A stretch of 12,645 nucleotides of DNA, taken from IMG/VR virus record IMGVR_UViG_2778261591_000019. The stretch is one strand, 5' to 3'. The stretch is from a virus (Duplodnaviria > Heunggongvirae > Uroviricota > Caudoviricetes). Below are positions 2,409 through 12,645 of this stretch, one piece after another. Under the pieces are notes generated by a model. That model was given only the letters and a program-made list of their open reading frames with translations. It searched no databases and was not told where the DNA came from. How positions within the stretch are numbered: the stretch's first letter is position 1; every line of letters begins with the position of its first letter. A program made the position numbers and the translations under genes.

Positions 2409-2840
2409 CTATTCAGGTATTTCAATTCCAAAACCATCTGCATCCCATGAGTTTTCACAGATGATGTAACCTAGTTCATTGAGCTTATTAAATGTTTTTT
2501 CAAAGATGATCTGGTAATCATTATCTGCAAGTGATTCCAGTTCAAGGTCATTAAGGTTTATATAAAAACTTGTATGTCCAAGTGTTATTTTCTTATTGAT
2601 TTCATTAAAAGTTCTTTTGAAAATAATATTTGATATTTCATGCCGTGCATTGTTTGCAATAATTTTTGCTTCATAAGCAGAAATTACGTCATCTTCATGA
2701 ATATCTTTCAGAAAGCTGGTGTCAAGACGTTGTACTATTTCAGCGTTCATTGAGCGCTTATTGGCTTTTGCAGAAATTTCTATTTTTTCTTTTACTTCAA
2801 CGGGAAGTCTGATCCTTAGTTGTGGATCTTCTCTGCTCAT
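2409..2840 (-). CDS. mnt: Mnt-like ribbon-helix-helix repressor with an extra C-terminal domain of about 60 aa
   Basis: N-terminus MSREDPQLRIRLPVEVKEKIEISAKANKRSMNAEIVQRL matches the P22 Mnt RHH motif (DP..F..R.P.EV.EK....A.AN.RSMN.E..Q). ATG at 2840 preceded by a GGTGA SD. Divergent from the arc-like/ant genes as in P22 immI. 143 aa versus 83 aa for P22 Mnt. Confidence 0.75.
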   Translation of the reverse strand: MSREDPQLRIRLPVEVKEKIEISAKANKRSMNAEIVQRLDTSFLKDIHEDDVISAYEAKIIANNARHEISNIIFKRTFNEINKKITLGHTSFYINLNDLELESLADNDYQIIFEKTFNKLNELGYIICENSWDADGFGIEIPE

Positions 2841-2870
2841 GTTCTTCACCAAATATTGAGTTACTTGCAA

Positions 2871-2960
2871 TGATTGAAGTATGCCTCACCGTGTGCTTGA
2901 CATCAATGACGCACGGTGTGACAATTGTTTTGCCCCACGGTGGGGCTAAGGAGATATGAA
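2871..2960. promoter_or_regulatory. Divergent promoter/operator region (Pant-like promoter with RHH operator half-sites)
   Basis: -35 TTGACA (2897-2902), 17-nt spacer, -10 GACAAT (2920-2925), reading toward the arc-like gene. Heptamer CACGGTG at 2912-2918 and 2936-2942 and its reverse complement CACCGTG at 2887-2893, about 24-25 bp apart. SD TAAGGAG at 2947-2953. Confidence 0.45.
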
Positions 2961-3128
2961 ATGCAAAAAGCAAAAGAGATGTGTCAACGACGAGTTCGTT
3001 TTCCGGACGATGTGAAGTTAGCTATTGAAAGAAATGGCGAAAAAGAATGCCGAAAGTTCAATACAGAGATTATCTATCAGCTGAGGAAAGTGTATGGACT
3101 CACTGGTGAGAAGAATAGCGTGGCATAA
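2961..3128 (+). CDS. arc: Arc-like ribbon-helix-helix repressor (55 aa)
   Basis: ATG 2961 with strong SD (TAAGGAG, 7-nt spacing). 55 aa, similar in size to P22 Arc (53 aa). RVRFPDDVKLAI...NTEIIYQLRKV fits the RHH beta-strand/helix pattern. Immediately upstream of the antirepressor gene. Confidence 0.65.
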   Translation: MQKAKEMCQRRVRFPDDVKLAIERNGEKECRKFNTEIIYQLRKVYGLTGEKNSVA

Positions 3129-3200
3129 AACAGCGAAGCCCAACGGTGGCCAGACCGTCAGGGCTTCAGTATCGTAAAACTACGTATAGGAATTAACGAC
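3127..3200 (-). ncRNA. Predicted sar-like small antisense RNA across the antirepressor RBS/start
   Basis: Minus-strand promoter inside the first codons of ant: -35 TTGATA (complement of 3230-3235), 17-nt spacer, -10 TATACT (complement of 3207-3212). Minus-strand terminator: stem GAAGCCC/GGGCTTC (3135-3141 with 3161-3167) followed by a T-tract (complement of 3127-3134). Predicted length about 70 nt, as for P22 sar. Confidence 0.35.
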
Positions 3201-4145
3201 ATGACGAGTATAGCAACAGCGCTATCTACTATCAACGTGCCATTCCACGGCGCAGAACTTTATGTTGTCAATCACAACGGAGAACCGTACACCCCAATGA
3301 AACCTATCGTTGAAGGCATGGGTATGGATTGGGCTTCACAGTTTACGAAAATGAAGCAGCGGTTTAAAACCTGCATTGTGAAAATCACAATGCAGCTTCC
3401 TGGGGATGAACAGCGCCGTGAGATTATTTGTTTGGCACTTCGCAAACTTGCTGGCTGGTTGCAAACCATCAGCCCTAACAAAGTCCGCCCTGAAATCCGC
3501 GACAAGGTAATCCAGTATCAGGAAGAGTGTGACGATGTTCTCTACGAGTACTGGACTAAAGGCCATGTGGTTAACCCACGCAAAGCTAAAAAGGCGTTGC
3601 CGGGTAAAATAACCACTGAACAGCAGGAAGCCATTAAACAACTCGTCATGAGTCGCGGTCAGTCTCTGCCAAAAGAAAAACAGGCTAAGGCGATGATCAC
3701 CATGTGGTCGTCACTGAAATCTCATTTTGGCTGTTCGTACAAAGAAATTGATGAAGATCAATTCGCCGAAGCGTTGTCTCTTGTTGCTCGGGTTCCGCTT
3801 GAAGGGGAGCATCTCCCTGCTGGATCTGCATCAGAGAATGATGAAGTGGCAGTCAAGATGTTAGATGCGCTTCGTGAGGCAATTAAAACACAGACAAAAT
3901 GTTATGGTTATCCGCTGAAGCCCGGCTACCGCAGTCTGATTCATTCGCCGTCTGGTGTTCTCGGCCTGACGGAGAACTCACTGCTGATGAATCTGCTTAA
4001 CCAGTTACAGGACGACGGGCACGATGTATCGGGCGCGGCGGCGGAGCTGACCACCATGTTCTGCTACATCGTCGGTGTGAGCAAGTGCCTGCGTGATATC
4101 CAGACCCACGCGGAGTACATCAACGACAAGGCAGGGTTCTTCTGA
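3201..4145 (+). CDS. ant: Phage antirepressor (Ant); N-terminal AntA-type domain plus a C-terminal module shared with two other genes in the window
   Basis: 314-aa ORF directly after arc in the immI arrangement, with ATG 3201 and AGGA upstream. N-terminus VPFHGAELYVVNHNGEPYTPMKPIVEGMGMDW resembles antirepressor N-domains. C-terminal 77 aa are near-identical to the C-terminus of the 5121-5813 gene. Confidence 0.75.
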   Translation: MTSIATALSTINVPFHGAELYVVNHNGEPYTPMKPIVEGMGMDWASQFTKMKQRFKTCIVKITMQLPGDEQRREIICLALRKLAGWLQTISPNKVRPEIRDKVIQYQEECDDVLYEYWTKGHVVNPRKAKKALPGKITTEQQEAIKQLVMSRGQSLPKEKQAKAMITMWSSLKSHFGCSYKEIDEDQFAEALSLVARVPLEGEHLPAGSASENDEVAVKMLDALREAIKTQTKCYGYPLKPGYRSLIHSPSGVLGLTENSLLMNLLNQLQDDGHDVSGAAAELTTMFCYIVGVSKCLRDIQTHAEYINDKAGFF

Positions 4146-4169
4146 CAGAACGGCGGCACAGGGATGTGC
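3915..4169. repeat. Inverted repeat, left copy (3' end of ant plus about 24 bp downstream)
   Basis: Reverse complement of 5099-5353 matches 3915-4169 at about 95% identity by hand alignment (about 12 mismatches over 231 coding bp); similarity continues past the stop codons (CGGCGGCACAGGGATGTGC). Confidence 0.85.
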
Positions 4170-4281: not shown

Positions 4282-4827
4282 TTATTCCTTCCATTTATCA
4301 GAAAAAAGATCTTCTTCTAAAGGCATTGGTTCTGTTTTTGTTTTCTCAAAGAATTGATAACTGATAGTGATTGCTTCCTCTTTAAACTCTTCTTGCTCAG
4401 TTATGTTGTGGGCATCTGCGTCAACAAAAAACATAACCAGCGCATCACGATTGTGATTTACCGAATAAACTAAAAAGCAATCACTTGTTGGTATGCATTT
4501 TACTTGCACAGACGCTATATTTTTCCATGCATCCCAAGATGATTTTTTACCAGTGTGTTTTTTATCACTATCTTCTGGAATATAGTCTTGGTTATCGACA
4601 TGAGTATGCCTGACATTTAGTTTAAGCATTTCTGTCGGACGAGCAAATGCAGCATCTTTACCAAGAGATGGATGGTATCCCGTTTTCCAATACTGGGTAA
4701 AGGCATCAGATACTTTCTTCAGCTCAAGATCAGATGCACAAAGGGCCGAGAAATTTTGCGTATGCAATACTCGACCCTTATATCTGACAATTTGATTTTT
4801 ATCATTCTGCGACGCAGACGAACTCAT
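4282..4827 (-). CDS. YafO-like toxin candidate (181 aa)
   Basis: ATG 4827 with AAGGA SD. By-eye similarity to E. coli YafO as I recall it: GKDAAF..P..LKLNVRHTHV versus GRDALY..P..IKFERVAHIHL, and FLVYSV...ALVMFFVDADAH versus HLVYCQ...WLLIAILKPEPH. The YafO sequence is from memory and unverified. Confidence 0.55.
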   Translation of the reverse strand: MSSSASQNDKNQIVRYKGRVLHTQNFSALCASDLELKKVSDAFTQYWKTGYHPSLGKDAAFARPTEMLKLNVRHTHVDNQDYIPEDSDKKHTGKKSSWDAWKNIASVQVKCIPTSDCFLVYSVNHNRDALVMFFVDADAHNITEQEEFKEEAITISYQFFEKTKTEPMPLEEDLFSDKWKE

Positions 4828-4981
4828 AATTTTCCTTATTGTTACGAGAATCAAAGAAAGCTCGGGATACGCGACTTGCGTGATCTTTTGTCATAGTAAC
4901 TTTTACGTACTCTACGCTTCCATTGAAAGAACGTCTTGCGGCAGCTTGCGCTCTACGCATCTGCAATTTTTCGTTTCGCAT
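4802..4981 (-). CDS. Small basic ORF (59 aa) overlapping the start of the toxin-like gene; candidate cognate antitoxin/regulator
   Basis: Not in the supplied ORF track (below size cutoff). ATG 4981 preceded by GAGG SD; stop TGA at 4804-4802 overlaps the downstream gene start by 26 nt. Promoter-like -35 TTGGTT (complement of 5031-5036), 17-nt spacer, -10 TGTAAT (complement of 5008-5013). Product MRNEKLQMRRAQAAARRSFNGSVEYVKVTMTKDHASRVSRAFFDSRNNKENYEFVCVAE. Confidence 0.35.
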   Translation of the reverse strand: MRNEKLQMRRAQAAARRSFNGSVEYVKVTMTKDHASRVSRAFFDSRNNKENYEFVCVAE

Positions 4982-5041: not shown

Positions 5042-5056
5042 TTACCCTTGAGGTAA
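5042..5056. promoter_or_regulatory. TTACC-N5-GGTAA palindrome immediately upstream of the -35 of the toxin-like operon promoter
   Basis: TTACCCTTGAGGTAA read directly; same palindrome family as 6080-6096, 6173-6189 and 7292-7308. Confidence 0.35.
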
Positions 5057-5098: not shown

Positions 5099-5353
5099 GC
5101 ACATCCCTGTGCGCCGCCCGTCAGAAGAACCCTGCTTTGTCGTTGATATACTCCGCGTGAGTCTGGATATCACGCAGGCATTTGCTCACACCAACGATGT
5201 AGCAGAACATGGTGGTCAGCTCCGCCGCCGCGCCAGATACGTCGTGCCCGTCTTCCTGTAACTGGTTCAGCAGATTCATCAGCAGTGAGTTCTCCGTCAG
5301 GCCGAGAACACCAGACGGAGAATGAATCAGGCTGCGGTATCCGGGCTTCAGTG
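5099..5353. repeat. Inverted repeat, right copy (3' end of the second antirepressor gene plus flanking bases)
   Basis: See left copy; the two copies encode nearly identical C-terminal peptides KPGYRSLIHSPSGVLGLTENSLLMNLLNQLQ(D/E)DGHDVSGAAAELTTMFCYIVGVSKCLRDIQTHAEYINDKAGFF on opposite strands. Confidence 0.85.
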
Positions 5354-5813
5354 GGGCGCTGTAGGTTTTGTTCTCTATCTTCATTGCCTGCATTACTGCT
5401 GACGCCGTGGCGTTGGCTACCTGGTCGGCAACCATCTTTATGCGTTCTTCCTGCGGGAGCGAGTTTTTAATGTAACTTCCAGTGCGGCGGATCTGAGGAA
5501 GAACCTCACCTGTAACCCATTCAAGAAATCTGAATGCTCTCGTTCCCTCTGTCATTGCCTCTTTGCAACGCAGAATAAGGATGTAGAGACCTGATTCTGA
5601 AACGATGGATAGTTCTTGTATTCCACCAGGGGTCTGTATTGAATACAGCCCCTTTTTGTTCCAGCCTTTTTTATCAAGTTTTCTCGCTTGTGTAACATCA
5701 ATATTCAAAGCATTGCACACATCTTTGGTGACAAACCAAGGTTCTCCGTCAATCATGAACATACGGATCTGGCAGGATGACTCAAAGGAAAAGATGGAAG
5801 GTTTGGTATTCAT
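5121..5813 (-). CDS. Second antirepressor: Bro-N-type N-terminal domain plus the shared antirepressor C-terminal module (230 aa)
   Basis: ATG 5813 with AGGTG SD. N-terminus IRMFMIDGEPWFVTKDVCNALNI...SESGLYILILRCKEAMTEGTRAFRFLEWVTGEVLPQIRR has classic Bro-N/antirepressor motifs. C-terminus as in ant. Confidence 0.8.
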   Translation of the reverse strand: MNTKPSIFSFESSCQIRMFMIDGEPWFVTKDVCNALNIDVTQARKLDKKGWNKKGLYSIQTPGGIQELSIVSESGLYILILRCKEAMTEGTRAFRFLEWVTGEVLPQIRRTGSYIKNSLPQEERIKMVADQVANATASAVMQAMKIENKTYSAPLKPGYRSLIHSPSGVLGLTENSLLMNLLNQLQEDGHDVSGAAAELTTMFCYIVGVSKCLRDIQTHAEYINDKAGFF

Positions 5814-6079
5814 GGCGATCACCTTTGTAGTTAGGTTAATCACCACCGCTGAGACCAATCAGATGGTGGTGAACTGTGCAGAGTTGGTCTTACCGGCTAC
5901 AAAGGAACCCGGCGCACCTTTCGGTGCCCCCACACAGCCCACCATAGAATAGGTGCGCTTTACACATAAAAAAACCGCTTATGCGGCATATGTGCCTCTG
6001 TAGTAATCCGGGAGACCAATCCCGGCACTGGATTTTGCCAGTGCCCGGTTACTATGGCACAGGATGAGTGCGATGTAAA

Positions 6080-6096
6080 TTTACCGTAAAGGTAAT
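6080..6096. promoter_or_regulatory. ATTACC-N5-GGTAAT palindrome (distal site upstream of the 6209 gene)
   Basis: ATTACCGTAAAGGTAAT read directly. Confidence 0.35.
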
Positions 6097-6172: not shown

Positions 6173-6189
6173 ATTACCTTTAAGGTAAT
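6173..6189. promoter_or_regulatory. ATTACC-N5-GGTAAT palindrome (proximal site, about 20 bp upstream of the 6209 start)
   Basis: ATTACCTTTAAGGTAAT read directly; preceded by ATCACCTGAAAG (6155-6166), which recurs at 7292-7303. Confidence 0.35.
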
Positions 6190-6208: not shown

Positions 6209-6937
6209 ATGGAAGTTTTCTGGATAGTTGTTGGTGTGGTTGCGGTGATTATTTATGTCCTTCACCAGAACAAGACTAAGATCTCTGATCGCACGGTCGT
6301 TAATCATAACAAAACGATAAAGACCGAAGATGGGGAGATAACGATTAATCGTACACAGGTGATAGAACACACCTCTACTCAGTTTCAAAAAACTGGAGGT
6401 AATGCGCCTAATATTTCCGCACCTCCTGCTTATGATAGTGAGGTAATCCAGACATATTATAAACAGCAGGAGTTAGCAAAAGAGAGGCAACTGATTCAGC
6501 CAAAGCCATTTACAGCAGAGCTTCCACCTGGAGTGTCAACGCGTCCGGCATATCATGGAAGATTCCCTGGTGATGACATATCGTCTCAGTCACCTAAAAA
6601 AGCACCTCAGGCAGTATCAGAGTCAGCAAGAATACCTTCTGTATCGCCGTCAAAAGAAGAATCAGCTAACAGAGTTTCAAGTGGCCGCAAGCAGTGTTTG
6701 CGATGCAGAATAAACCTTCCATATGAAAAATTCCGGAAATCGTCAAAAAATCCAGATGGATTGACTAAGTGGTGTGCAAGGTGTCTCGATGGCCCAAAGA
6801 ATACACGTCATATGAAGTGGTGCCCAATTTGTAATGTCCGCAGAAAACGAACCAGCTTTTATCCTAATAATCAAAATGCGGATGGTTTAATGGCATGGTG
6901 CAAAACGTGCTGGGACGAGCACAAAGCGAAACGATAG
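6209..6937 (+). CDS. Membrane-tethered protein with two tandem C-x2-C-x22-C-x2-C zinc-ribbon motifs (242 aa); function unknown
   Basis: ATG 6209 with GAGG SD. N-terminal TM helix (VFWIVVGVVAVIIYVL), S/P/Q-rich linker, then CLRC-x22-CARC and CPIC-x22-CKTC, each with a conserved P...N.DGL..WC core. Confidence 0.7.
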   Translation: MEVFWIVVGVVAVIIYVLHQNKTKISDRTVVNHNKTIKTEDGEITINRTQVIEHTSTQFQKTGGNAPNISAPPAYDSEVIQTYYKQQELAKERQLIQPKPFTAELPPGVSTRPAYHGRFPGDDISSQSPKKAPQAVSESARIPSVSPSKEESANRVSSGRKQCLRCRINLPYEKFRKSSKNPDGLTKWCARCLDGPKNTRHMKWCPICNVRRKRTSFYPNNQNADGLMAWCKTCWDEHKAKR

Positions 6938-6960
6938 GCCGCTCTTGCGGCCTTTTCTTT
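6937..6960 (+). terminator. Rho-independent terminator after the zinc-ribbon gene (possibly bidirectional)
   Basis: GGCCGC-TCTT-GCGGCC hairpin (6937-6952) plus TTTTCTTT; same stem sequence as the ant terminator at 4197-4212. Confidence 0.6.
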
Positions 6961-7216
6961 ATGTAGTTTGTTTTCGTAATTGTTCGGCACAATAGTCGAG
7001 ATGTGTTTGCAGATCCTGCATAGACATCTGTGAGCTGGTGACGTAGTTAATCAGTGCAGTCAGTTCGGCAAGTGGGCCATCGACATTAAATCCATCCTTA
7101 TCGAGATCCCGGAGTAATTTCATCAAGTGCGATCCCTCCACCAGTGACCTGACGCCTCCCGGCGTGTGAATCCTTTCGGTAAATCCCTCTTCCAGTGGAT
7201 AGTGATACTGCTGCAT
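6959..7216 (-). CDS. Stand-alone antirepressor C-terminal-module protein (85 aa)
   Basis: ATG 7216 with GGAG SD. IHTPGGVRSLVEGSHLMKLLRDLDKDGFNVDGPLAELTALINYV...DLQTHLDY aligns with IHSPSGVLGLTENSLLMNLLNQLQDDGHDVSGAAAELTTMFCYI...DIQTHAEY of both antirepressors, about 45% identity by eye. Confidence 0.7.
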   Translation of the reverse strand: MQQYHYPLEEGFTERIHTPGGVRSLVEGSHLMKLLRDLDKDGFNVDGPLAELTALINYVTSSQMSMQDLQTHLDYCAEQLRKQTT

Positions 7217-7291
7217 CTTATCTTCTCCATGCAATAACTGTATAAATATACAGTAGCAAATAATTTGTTTGCTATCCAGCACGTTTTGCGA

Positions 7292-7411: not shown

Positions 7412-9406
7412 ATGACGGTCTCAACCGAAGTTGACCACAACGAATATACAGGTAACGGTGTTACAACTACGTTCCCTTATACCTTTAGGATTTTCCAGAA
7501 ATCTGATCTGGTGGTGCAGGTGATTGACCTTGACGAGAATATCACTGTGCTGGCTCTTGATACTGATTACGCAGTCACTGGTGCGGGAGGCTATAGCGGC
7601 GGTAATATAATACTGTCGAAGGCATTGGCCAACGGTTATCAGATCTCTATATCACGAGAGCTCCCGGTTACTCAGGAAACAGATCTGCGTAATCAGGGTA
7701 AATTCTTTGCAGAGGTGCATGAGGATGCGTTTGATAAGCTAACGATGCTGATTCAACAATGTCGTAGCTTGTTTCGTCTTGCACTTTGCAAACCATCAAG
7801 TATTGCAAACTGGTACGACGCTTTAAATAACAGGATTAGAAATCTTAAAGATCCAGAAAGCCCTCAGGATGCAGTAACTTTAAGTTATCTTGAAGGGTAT
7901 ATAGAAGGTGGTGATAGTACTTTGCGTCCAGATATTACAAGAACTGGAGCTGTAGGGAATAATATACAGCAAGCCATAAACTTATCTATAGCCGGTCAAA
8001 CTGTAATTACGATGAAAGATGATGAAATTGTATCTTCATTGTTAAATGAATATGGTGTTGAAATTGAGCAACGCAGGGGGCGTGTATTTAATACAGAAGG
8101 TGTTCAACTAACAACGTATTCTGACCCTCGTTCCCGTTTTGTAACTGGTGACCAATATCTTAATTATGTTATTAGCAAGATGATAAAAGCAGATGGCGTG
8201 GATAAATCACAGAAAACATATATTTTGTGGTCTGGTGACTCCACGATTGTTGGTGTTAACTCTGAATTATGGCCACCAGCAACTATTGCTGATTTTTATG
8301 CAAAAAGGTATGGAATTATTGATGTAAAAAATACATCGTTAGGTCATTCAGGTAAAACTCTATACGAATGGGGTAATTGGTATATTGATCAGGAATGGTC
8401 TGTTTTTTCTGCTGCTGATTTGATTGTTTTACGATGGGGAATTAACGATCCATATTATGGTTATACATTGGATCAAGTAAAAGACGCATTAGATAGAGGT
8501 CTTTCCAAGTTACGAAATAACAAATCAGTTTCCCAGCAATCAATTATTATCATGTCCCCAAACTCAACATCAGACACACCAAACGGACGTGATGAAAAAT
8601 GGTATGAACAGTTAACAGCCGTACTTAGAGCCAAAGCAAAACAATATAAGTGTATGTTTTTTGATACTTACGGTATGTGGCAGGATTCGCGAGGATCTGC
8701 TGGTAACTGGCTTGACGACCCTTATGGCGATGGCAGGGGAATACACCCAAACTCAACATTTAGCGCACAGATACATAAATTATTATTTGAATATATTTAT
8801 GGACCGTGTGCTGTTATAAATGGGAGTAGCAACCTTTTTTCTAACAATGGTTCTTCCATACAATTCATCAATAGCTCATATCCGCCAAATACTTTTCACA
8901 TGGGGACTTCATGGTGGAGAACAAACCCTGATGATGCTTCTTGGCCTCTTGACGGTGTTATTCAGGTTGATAGATTTGTTGACGGAATAGTAGTACAAAA
9001 AAATTATGGTTATTCTTCAGATAATGCTCGCGTTTGCTTAATGAGGATTGGAAGGATTAGTGAGAATACATGGAGTACATGGCGAGGTAATCAGTATGAT
9101 ATGAGTGGCATATTGCAAAATGGTTGGTCTGTAGGTGAGGCAAGAAGTGGAACATATCAGAAATCAGCCGAGGGCGTTGTTACTTTATCTGCTGTTTTAA
9201 CAGGTGGAAATACATCTGTTGGCACAGTTATTATGGTATTGCCAGAAGGGTTTAGACCAAAGAATGATATTTCTTATATTCCATCAGGTACTGATTCATC
9301 GGTTGCCCTCATTAATATACTTTCAAACGGTAAAGTTACAATTCAGAGCTATCCGTCAGGAACAGTTCTTGTAATTAATACGACATTCCCTTCATTAGTT
9401 AATTAG
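7412..9406 (+). CDS. Tailspike/tail fibre with conserved N-terminal particle-binding domain, central SGNH (GDSL-type) esterase domain and C-terminal beta-rich receptor-binding region (664 aa)
   Basis: ATG 7412 with GGAG SD. SGNH blocks: WSGDST (G275-D276-S277), LGHSGKT, WGINDP, GRGIHPN. N-terminal about 120 aa (NEYTGNGVTTTFPYTF...DTDYAVTG) resembles tail-fibre/tailspike anchor domains. Size and domain order fit an O-antigen-deacetylating tailspike. Confidence 0.8.
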   Translation: MTVSTEVDHNEYTGNGVTTTFPYTFRIFQKSDLVVQVIDLDENITVLALDTDYAVTGAGGYSGGNIILSKALANGYQISISRELPVTQETDLRNQGKFFAEVHEDAFDKLTMLIQQCRSLFRLALCKPSSIANWYDALNNRIRNLKDPESPQDAVTLSYLEGYIEGGDSTLRPDITRTGAVGNNIQQAINLSIAGQTVITMKDDEIVSSLLNEYGVEIEQRRGRVFNTEGVQLTTYSDPRSRFVTGDQYLNYVISKMIKADGVDKSQKTYILWSGDSTIVGVNSELWPPATIADFYAKRYGIIDVKNTSLGHSGKTLYEWGNWYIDQEWSVFSAADLIVLRWGINDPYYGYTLDQVKDALDRGLSKLRNNKSVSQQSIIIMSPNSTSDTPNGRDEKWYEQLTAVLRAKAKQYKCMFFDTYGMWQDSRGSAGNWLDDPYGDGRGIHPNSTFSAQIHKLLFEYIYGPCAVINGSSNLFSNNGSSIQFINSSYPPNTFHMGTSWWRTNPDDASWPLDGVIQVDRFVDGIVVQKNYGYSSDNARVCLMRIGRISENTWSTWRGNQYDMSGILQNGWSVGEARSGTYQKSAEGVVTLSAVLTGGNTSVGTVIMVLPEGFRPKNDISYIPSGTDSSVALINILSNGKVTIQSYPSGTVLVINTTFPSLVN

Positions 9407-10876: not shown

Positions 10877-11355
10877 TCTGGGCATTCGTAAAAGCATACT
10901 GGAAACAGATGCTTATCGTGTTGATGCTTGCTGCTCTGTTCATCGTCGGAGTGGTTGCCTGGAATATACACGGCAGCCGCCAGTACGATGCCGGGTATGC
11001 GCAGGCGGAAGAAGACCGCAAAGACGAAGAAGACAAAGTTCGTCAGTACTACGAACAGGAGAAAGTGACCAATGAACGTGAAGCTCAGCAGAGGATCGAC
11101 CAGGCGCGCAATGATGCTCTTGATGCTGCCGCTCGCGCTGGCCGGTTGCAGCAACAACTCTTTGCCATCCGTGAGTATCTCAGGCAGTATAACGCCATTG
11201 TCGGCGCTGGGACGTCAGCCGCAGACACCGGAGTTTTGCTTGCCGACGTGCTCAGCAAATCTCTCGAGAGAAACAGACAACTGGCAGAGTATGCTGACCG
11301 GGCAGCCGAAGCCGGAAGAGTCTGCGAAAAACAGTACGACACCCTGACCAGATAG
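10873..11355 (+). CDS. i-spanin (Rz-like): N-terminal TM anchor plus periplasmic coiled coil
   Basis: ATGA start/stop overlap with the endolysin (10873-10876). TM helix [18 protein letters not shown] followed by a charged helical region; contains an embedded +1-frame lipoprotein ORF. Confidence 0.65.
11072..11347 (+). CDS. o-spanin (Rz1-like outer-membrane lipoprotein) embedded within the i-spanin gene
   Basis: Signal peptide with lipobox ([26 protein letters not shown]), Pro/Ser-rich mature region; entirely inside the Rz frame, ending 8 nt before it. Start could instead be ATG 11111. Confidence 0.55.
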   Translation: MNVKLSRGSTRRAMMLLMLPLALAGCSNNSLPSVSISGSITPLSALGRQPQTPEFCLPTCSANLSRETDNWQSMLTGQPKPEESAKNSTTP

Positions 11356-11574: not shown

Positions 11575-12114
11575 TTAATTAAACCAGCTGTCCGATTTGT
11601 TCTCTTCTGCTTTGCCCACGCTTTTCATCAGATCGCGACCGCCTTCAGTCATATTTCTGTTGGCGTCAGCTTCAGATTGCACCACATCGGTTTGCGCAGC
11701 TTTGTGCTTCAGTTCCTGATCGATAAATTCGTTTTCTCGCTTAACGCGGGCTTCTTCTTTCGCCAGCGCCAGTTTTTGTTTCTGAATCTCTAAGCTGCGT
11801 AGCTCATCTTCATAACTTTGATCGCGTTTTTTGTCCGCAGAGGCTTCGGCGTCCAGTTTATCCTGACGAGCTTTCTTATTTGCTGCTGCCGTTGCCGCTC
11901 TTTTGTTAGCGGCGGCCTGGGCATTTGCGCGACGTTGCTTCTCTTGCTGGATTTCCCTGTTGCGCTCCGCGACCCATTCGTCATGCTGCCTTTGCTCTTC
12001 ATTTTTACCTTGCTGTTCAGCTTCTGCTACAGCAGAGAGTTGATCCTGCAATGATGAGGCGATAGCCGGATAGCTTAAGGAGGCCAAGATGGCGCAAAGA
12101 AAAACTTTCTTCAT
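11575..12114 (-). CDS. Secreted coiled-coil protein (signal peptide; Ala/Lys/Glu/Gln-rich), 179 aa
   Basis: ATG 12114 with strong AGGAGG SD. Signal peptide MKKVFLCAILASLSYPAIA; remainder strongly helical/charged. No family recognised. Confidence 0.6.
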   Translation of the reverse strand: MKKVFLCAILASLSYPAIASSLQDQLSAVAEAEQQGKNEEQRQHDEWVAERNREIQQEKQRRANAQAAANKRAATAAANKKARQDKLDAEASADKKRDQSYEDELRSLEIQKQKLALAKEEARVKRENEFIDQELKHKAAQTDVVQSEADANRNMTEGGRDLMKSVGKAEENKSDSWFN

Positions 12115-12129
12115 GACTCCTCCTGATTA

Positions 12130-12645
12130 TTAGCTCTTTTCAGGACATTTAGTATTTGGCTGAATACGCGTTTCGTTATACGTTGTGGTAATAACAACGG
12201 CTAAACCTGTCGTAAACTGGCACTCTTTACCCACCTGGGTAGAGGTATACACTTTGGTGCCTTCCTTATATGTTAAAGAAACACCTTCCACTAAGGTTTT
12301 ATCATTCACCATAGAACCCGCTGCCGCGCCTACAGCTCCGCCGCCAACTGCCCCTGCCGTCGTTCCGGAATTGCTGCCAGAACCGACGTTGTGGCCGATA
12401 ACACCGCCAGCGACTGCGCCAATAAGCGCGCCGAAGGCTTGTGCGTTCCGTTTATTTTGGGAGTTGTCTACGGCAACTTTTGCGGGAAGAATGGAAATAA
12501 TATTAACGGTTTTAGTTTCTTGTTTGGTATTCAGTTGATCGGTTTGATAAACATCGGCGGCATGATCGTCAGCATTTGACTGGCATCCTGCCAGAGTGAA
12601 TGACGCTAACATTGCCACAGGCAGAAGACATTTTTTAAATTTCAT
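12130..12645 (-). CDS. Outer-membrane lipoprotein with glycine-zipper domain (YcfJ/SlyB/Pcp-like, 17-kDa-antigen family), 171 aa
   Basis: Lipobox LAGC after a signal peptide. GALIGAVAGGVIGHNVGSG...GAVGGGAVGAAAG closely resembles the YcfJ/SlyB glycine-zipper core (from memory). ATG at the window edge (12645). Confidence 0.7.
   Translation of the reverse strand: MKFKKCLLPVAMLASFTLAGCQSNADDHAADVYQTDQLNTKQETKTVNIISILPAKVAVDNSQNKRNAQAFGALIGAVAGGVIGHNVGSGSNSGTTAGAVGGGAVGAAAGSMVNDKTLVEGVSLTYKEGTKVYTSTQVGKECQFTTGLAVVITTTYNETRIQPNTKCPEKS

Follow-up and report, generated by a model that had tools for sequence, protein, structure and literature searches.

The 85-aa open reading frame (ORF) examined here encodes, with a probability of about 0.9, Ant, an antirepressor under SOS control that belongs to an epsilon15/phiV10-like (Uetakevirus) prophage and would act by breaking up the tetramer of the prophage repressor Rep. 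It is a further member of a family that is already known and structurally characterised. This assignment is backed by orthology, fold, synteny, a LexA box and purifying selection, and by the cognate Rep that the closest relative encodes; Rep binding and tetramer disassembly would follow by analogy, from the literature on the SPC32H orthologue. The window, meaning the whole 12,645-nucleotide stretch of DNA analysed, is the right end of such a prophage and is 96% identical to Escherichia phage TL-2011b. Two larger antirepressors encoded in the window end in the same module.

Identity of the Small ORF

The small ORF is a single domain of about 86 aa, homologous over its full length to Ant of phage SPC32H (85 versus 86 aa) and 89% identical to the product of the SPC32H 'ant' CDS (SPC32H_020). 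A phmmer search returned a single PDB match, chain E of 5D50 ('Anti-repressor protein', 86 aa), with an E value of 5e-48 and residues 2-85 aligned to 3-86; this entry is the crystal structure of SPC32H Ant in complex with its repressor. No meaningful family came out of Pfam or NCBIfam scans of the small ORF, and it is recognised only by PHROGs and PDB, the PHROGs match being to phrog_450 ('unknown function') over positions 5-87 of 88.

Gene order leads to the same assignment. SPC32H ant, epsilon15 gp19 and phiV10 p24 are orthologues of the small ORF by position, and ant is divergent from the tailspike gene in SPC32H, epsilon15, phiV10, Tyrion, BUCT554, BUCT711, ZX5 and TL-2011b. Its place after the virion genes is conserved in Uetakevirus genomes. 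The GGAG before the start codon is invariant in an alignment of seven phages. A longer reading of 107 aa from a GTG at 7282 was rejected, as it crosses the regulatory sites and the orthologues give it no support.

Table 1. Features of the window, ordered by position
Feature	Position	Strand	Details
Mnt-like gene	2409..2870	minus	Ribbon-helix-helix; Arc domain, E 1.2e-14
Arc-like gene	2925..3128	plus	Ribbon-helix-helix; Arc-like PHROGs, TL-2011b annotation
sar-like antisense RNA	3132..3199	minus	Between arc and the P22_AR_N antirepressor gene; Rfam 45.2 bits (gathering 43)
Large antirepressor 1, 314 aa	3201..4145	plus	P22_AR_N domain and middle (residues 1 to ~224), Ant module (~232-314)
Inverted repeat of the fused Ant modules, 270 nt	3877..4146 and 5120-5389		Arms 90% complementary
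Three Ant-module copies	3894-4142, 5124-5375, 6962-7216	plus, minus, minus	Span 3.3 kb
TTACC-N5-GGTAA palindrome	5042-5056		Upstream of the YafO-like cassette
Large antirepressor 2, 245 aa	5121..5858	minus	Bro-N domain (E 2.1e-13), C-terminal Ant module
Bro-N antirepressor leader	5862..6057	minus	isrK-like RNA, c4 a1/b1 targets, C4 antisense RNA
C4 antisense RNA	5949..5862	minus	Rfam 78.6 bits (gathering 45)
isrK-like RNA	6044..5968	minus	Rfam 74.7 bits (gathering 50)
c4 a1/b1 targets	6057..6005	minus	Rfam c4-a1b1 40.5 bits, below the gathering score of 46.7
Perfect TTACC-N5-GGTAA palindromes	6081-6095 and 6174-6188		Upstream of the Bro-N antirepressor leader
242-aa protein	6209-6937	plus	N-terminal hydrophobic stretch, C-terminal Cys-rich repeats; phrog_6762
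GC-rich hairpin	6936..6953		Between the convergent genes 6209..6937 and ant; terminator with T-run on the plus strand only
ant, 85-aa stand-alone antirepressor	6959..7216	minus	ATG 7216..7214, stop 6961..6959
Shine-Dalgarno GGAG	7225..7228	minus	8 nt before the ant ATG, read from the sequence
Predicted LexA (SOS) box AACTGTATAAATATACAGTA	7236..7255		18/20 consensus matches; 19 nt upstream of the ant ATG
Palindrome TCACC-N5-GGTAA	7293..7307		One mismatch; ant-tailspike intergenic region, about 40 nt upstream of the LexA box
Tailspike	7412-9406	plus	Uetakevirus-type N-terminal adaptor, SGNH/GDSL esterase (Lipase_GDSL_2, E 7e-15)
Host genes yfgI and yfgH	11575-12645	minus	Beyond the prophage end

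Conservation and Distribution

The ant gene is under strong purifying selection. Against the orthologues of Salmonella and Enterobacter phages dN/dS is 0.04-0.07, with synonymous sites nearly saturated, and none of the 35 phage records with the gene has it truncated. In the phage collection Rep occurs in 36 records, and the two sets are largely the same Uetakevirus-type phages. Among 5,426 complete Escherichia coli genomes, 529 (about 10%) have ant together with its upstream region, 523 of them with a match that spans 80% or more of the query; every E. coli record among the matches listed labels the gene 'hypothetical protein'. In effect, a common family of podophage prophages that modify the O antigen, several members of which occur in EHEC/STEC and APEC strains, has its SOS switch in this gene.

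The number of places per record that hold the Ant module varies. Salmonella members, including SPC32H and epsilon15, have the small Ant only, at one place per record; most E. coli members have two places, and TL-2011b and the window have three.

The Upstream Region of ant

The predicted LexA box upstream of ant is the single match within the window, against 0.01 expected. Across the ant-tailspike intergenic region, aligned for seven phages from four host genera, CTGT-N8-ACAG stands in register in six of the seven Uetakevirus relatives, and the Klebsiella phage has ATGT. SPC32N and SPC32H differ at one position in the ant region compared, a C>A change in the CAG of the LexA box. Kim & Ryu reportedly found in 2013 that mutation of this box makes Ant constitutive and drives the SPC32N variant into the lytic cycle. 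From its sequence the box is a predicted LexA site with a pro-lytic sense, and its position upstream of ant means that Ant would be made exactly when induction is favoured. A review places Ant production after LexA self-cleavage (PMC7380047). A simple sigma-70 consensus scan upstream of ant found no promoter, and inspection by eye gave no confident -35 and -10 hexamers; that the box overlaps the ant promoter is suggested by its position and by the SPC32H work.

Rep and the Proposed Mechanism

Rep is encoded outside the 12.6-kb window and is known from relatives. TL-2011b, which has all three Ant-module genes, encodes a Rep homologue that matches 5D50_A over its full length (E 6.6e-42). Over its whole length this E. 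coli-type Rep shares 42% identity with SPC32H Rep; the Rep of ZX5 matches the TL-2011b one at 98% identity. Between the E. coli and Salmonella Uetakeviruses, Ant, at 89% identity, is far more constrained than its presumed partner. Because the partner is known from relatives, and because identity falls from 89% in Ant to 42% in Rep, we infer rather than observe binding for the window's own pair.

Papers citing Kim & Ryu 2013 and Kim et al. 2016 describe SPC32H Ant as a tetramer that binds two Rep dimers, and the part contacted by Ant is given as the C-terminal tetramerisation domain of Rep (PMC9986798). If the window's Ant behaves likewise, host LexA seated on its box would keep ant off in the lysogen. 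DNA damage would activate RecA and cause LexA to cleave itself, allowing ant to be transcribed. The Ant tetramer would then bind the C-terminal domain of Rep and split the DNA-binding Rep tetramer into dimers, which would derepress the lytic genes. The two large antirepressors may be extra, LexA-independent ways to inactivate the same repressor, since they carry the same Rep-binding module on other N-terminal domains and behind other circuits; their modules would bind the same Rep, and the small protein would not be their regulator.

Two Large Antirepressors Share the Ant Module

The earlier note had held that the small protein aligns along its whole length to a C-terminal module of both large antirepressors and that three paralogous copies of this domain lie close together. 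Both points are borne out, and the similarity is far beyond chance. By BLASTP, without gaps, the small ORF is 44% identical to residues 235-306 of antirepressor 1 (E 3e-16) and 42% identical to residues 164-237 of antirepressor 2 (E 7e-16). The matches of the small protein and both large ones each span the whole of phrog_450 (E 1.6e-47, 2.5e-35 and 3.9e-37), and an alignment of 15 sequences has 21 invariant columns common to stand-alone and fused forms. Both fused modules match 5D50_E at E values of about 1e-13 (9.8e-14 for residues 164-240 of antirepressor 2), so that in both large proteins the C-terminal ~80 aa are homologous to SPC32H Ant by sequence as well as by fold. Identity between the two large proteins is 83% over their last ~100 aa and almost complete over the last ~80 aa, whereas in the alignment the fused modules share only 37-39% identity with the prophage's own small Ant. 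At ~39% identity to the small Ant, the fused modules might differ from it in specificity. For antirepressor 2, the start codon is likely the ATG at 5816, giving a protein of 231 aa.

The small ant is the conserved core gene and original form, and the large antirepressors are derived fusions, the reverse of the direction of descent that the earlier note had assumed. Across 1.84 billion representative proteins, an exhaustive profile search found only 60 clusters with the Ant module, and it was this search that recovered the fused forms, a word-indexed protein search having given stand-alone forms only. In the fused forms examined, the module lies at the extreme C-terminus behind Bro-N, AntA or Phage_pRha, and in the window also behind P22_AR_N. 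A kinship with the C-terminal domain of P22 Ant was considered and rejected. None of the three proteins matches P22_AR_C (PF10548) at E <= 0.1, and P22 Ant aligns to residues 1-214 of antirepressor 1 and to nothing past residue 214. Since P22 Ant aligns to 1-214 only and P22_AR_C is absent, the P22-type protein has swapped its C-terminal domain for the Uetakevirus module.

The fused modules form the arms of a 270-nt inverted repeat. Because dN/dS between the arms is 0.115, both fused modules are under selection, and they look functional. The repeat brackets a 973-nt segment with a YafO-family toxin-like gene (4282..4854, minus strand) and a small upstream ORF (4802..4981, minus strand), and inversion or recombination between the arms seems possible from this arrangement.

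The Bro-N antirepressor is 81% identical to ORF4 of phage ZX5, and the C-terminal ~125 aa are identical. Overexpression of ZX5 ORF4 lowered the prophage titre about 1000-fold, and the paper mentions neither the small gene nor LexA nor SPC32H (PMC9782041). In phiV10 the Bro-N antirepressor gene (3060-3739 of the phiV10 stretch compared) carries a frameshift within its Ant module; the end of p23 is out of frame, and the annotation assigns the last 29 codons to a gene of their own, p22. Because of this frameshift, phiV10, the reference phage of the group, is without a working fused copy.

Control Regions of the Large Antirepressors

The control regions differ for each copy of the module: the small Ant has the LexA box, the P22_AR_N fusion has Mnt, Arc and sar, and the Bro-N fusion has C4/isrK RNA. 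Large antirepressor 1 is controlled by the divergent Mnt-like and Arc-like genes. The Mnt-like protein, of 153 aa, has an N-terminal Arc-type ribbon-helix-helix and a C-terminal extension of ~90 aa and of unknown function (phrog_1388); it is longer than the product of the 113-aa gene annotated at the same place in TL-2011b, and P22 Mnt is likewise shorter. A promoter-like site lies on the minus strand at 3235..3207, near the sar-like RNA. ZX5, phiV10 and TL-2011b all keep the Bro-N antirepressor leader, an RNA switch of the P1/P7-immI or Gifsy-1 isrK-anrP type, here within a Uetakevirus prophage.

The palindrome TTACC-N5-GGTAA has four sites in the window, against 0.24 expected. The place of the site between ant and the tailspike gene is occupied in seven of seven relatives, and the site at 6081 is kept in phiV10 and ZX5, with promoter-like hexamers on its flanks. 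These palindromes cluster around rep in SPC32H, epsilon15 and TL-2011b, and the epsilon15 RefSeq record annotates them as 'repressor / lysogeny' binding sites. They are likely Rep operators, placed ahead of the Bro-N ant leader, the YafO-like cassette and ant/tailspike, and the C4/isrK circuit of the Bro-N copy possibly includes them. If Rep does control the promoter of that leader, the Bro-N antirepressor would reinforce the switch after the first inactivation of Rep.

Taken together, the three copies suggest a wider reading, which we hold tentatively and at slightly less than even odds. The SPC32H-type Ant would be a portable repressor-targeting module that acts by itself under LexA and has also been joined to no fewer than four unrelated N-terminal domains (P22_AR_N and Bro-N in the window, AntA and Rha elsewhere), and in this prophage three classical circuits would let several signals converge on one repressor. 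Repressor binding would then not lie in the widespread N-terminal domains of the large antirepressors, whose role this system would allow to be tested. A bolder extension is that the three module-bearing proteins could form mixed tetramers. The part that has not been described before is that a single prophage uses the module repeatedly, on several N-terminal scaffolds and under the control of three circuits. It is of moderate interest and does not overturn current understanding. The prophage offers a compact natural system for asking how prophages integrate several induction signals and what Bro-N, P22_AR_N, AntA and Rha do if the C-terminal module binds the repressor.

Alternative Roles of the Small Protein

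The earlier note had proposed that a domain-only paralogue could be either a dominant-negative anti-antirepressor, layered on Mnt/Arc/sar control, or the minimal repressor-binding or oligomerisation unit. The latter was essentially correct, as the orthologue was crystallised with its repressor and is described as a tetramer. As an anti-antirepressor, the small Ant would co-assemble with the large antirepressors and poison them, or occupy Rep harmlessly, and so damp induction. Mixed oligomers are physically conceivable, with a tetrameric orthologue and 21 invariant positions and one fold common to the three modules, but 5D50 shows the orthologue, an antirepressor in its own right, in complex with Rep. 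The gene is also equally conserved in the Salmonella relatives, which have no large module protein; because these phages carry the small Ant alone, its function is independent of the large proteins. It sits behind a LexA box, and the only SPC32N/SPC32H difference in the ant region compared falls in that box; according to Kim & Ryu in 2013, SPC32N, constitutive for Ant, reportedly goes lytic. Such a damping role is highly improbable. The probability is close to nil that the ORF is a chance reading frame or a degraded remnant, a functionless 3' left-over of a large antirepressor gene, the other case that the earlier note had raised. Its shortness, the lack of a Pfam or NCBIfam family and the 'hypothetical protein' label in all listed E. 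coli records are what such a remnant might look like, but the low dN/dS, the intact length in phages and in nearly all E. coli matches, the gene's own LexA box and ribosome-binding site with its invariant GGAG, the conserved position and the crystallised orthologue all count against it. A decayed fragment is ruled out by the conservation data.

A division of labour would leave the small ORF an antirepressor. The small Ant and the fused modules would have different targets, such as the Rep immunity types of co-resident or superinfecting Uetakevirus-like phages, or separate surfaces of Rep, and the copies would then not be redundant. The fused modules are nearly identical to each other yet distant from the small Ant, and the unequal identities of Ant and Rep across hosts imply that the two need not co-vary one to one. 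Trans-acting cross-induction by antirepressors is known among Salmonella prophages (PMC3121763; PMC7380047). However, the ZX5 Bro-N protein, with its identical C-terminal 125 aa, lowers the lysogeny of its own phage, whose Rep is nearly that of TL-2011b, and outside genomes that encode this Rep family the module family hardly occurs. A division of labour is therefore unlikely, though it retains some weight, and the preferred reading remains an SOS-controlled Ant that would act on the prophage's own Rep.

Prophage Context

The prophage ends between the spanin gene, which ends at 11355, and 11575, since the host genes yfgI and yfgH follow from that point. The TL-2011b record takes in these host genes too, and its name for the yfgH homologue, 'DNA methyltransferase', seems to be an annotation error. 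The 242-aa gene is an insertion that separates the Bro-N leader from ant; strain OkiPb01711 has it, phiV10 and ZX5 lack it, and TL-2011b has a similar stretch flagged as a misc_feature. Its product has weak matches to endonuclease VII/HNH-type and Stc1 zinc fingers. The tailspike carries an esterase instead of a beta-helix depolymerase, which suggests a deacetylating receptor-binding protein.

Comparison with Known Systems

The closest known system is that of SPC32H, with which the window shares an Ant of 89% identity, its divergence from the tailspike gene and a LexA box in the same register; a two-domain Rep occurs in the same kind of phage. The cognate Rep of such an Ant would be non-cleavable, with an HTH domain at its N-terminus and a C-terminal domain for tetramerisation and Ant binding. 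The window differs in the host, Salmonella there and E. coli here, and in the presumed partner Rep, at only 42% identity. One half-site of the window's upstream palindrome is degenerate, and the window's genome carries two fused module copies that SPC32H lacks.

Tum of coliphage 186 and GfoA/GfhA of the Gifsy prophages are alike in strategy, as an uncleaved repressor is inactivated by direct binding of a small LexA-repressed protein (PMC3121763; PMC7380047). No sequence relationship to them showed in Pfam, NCBIfam and PDB scans of the small ORF, which gave no match besides 5D50. The abstract of the SPC32H paper is said to describe Ant as structurally distinct from Tum/Gifsy-type antirepressors.

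P22 offers a likeness to large antirepressor 1, which resembles P22 Ant in P22_AR_N and the middle region, at 39% identity across residues 1-214, and, as in P22 immI, stands behind Arc-like and Mnt-like genes and a sar-like RNA. The small ORF, in contrast, has no similarity to P22 Ant. The immI region of P1/P7 (c4-icd-ant) and isrK-anrP of Gifsy-1, the latter as outlined in a review (PMC7380047), resemble the Bro-N antirepressor behind its isrK-like and C4 RNA. This likeness holds for the Bro-N copy and not for the small ORF, and the effector at the end of the circuit is here a module of the SPC32H type.
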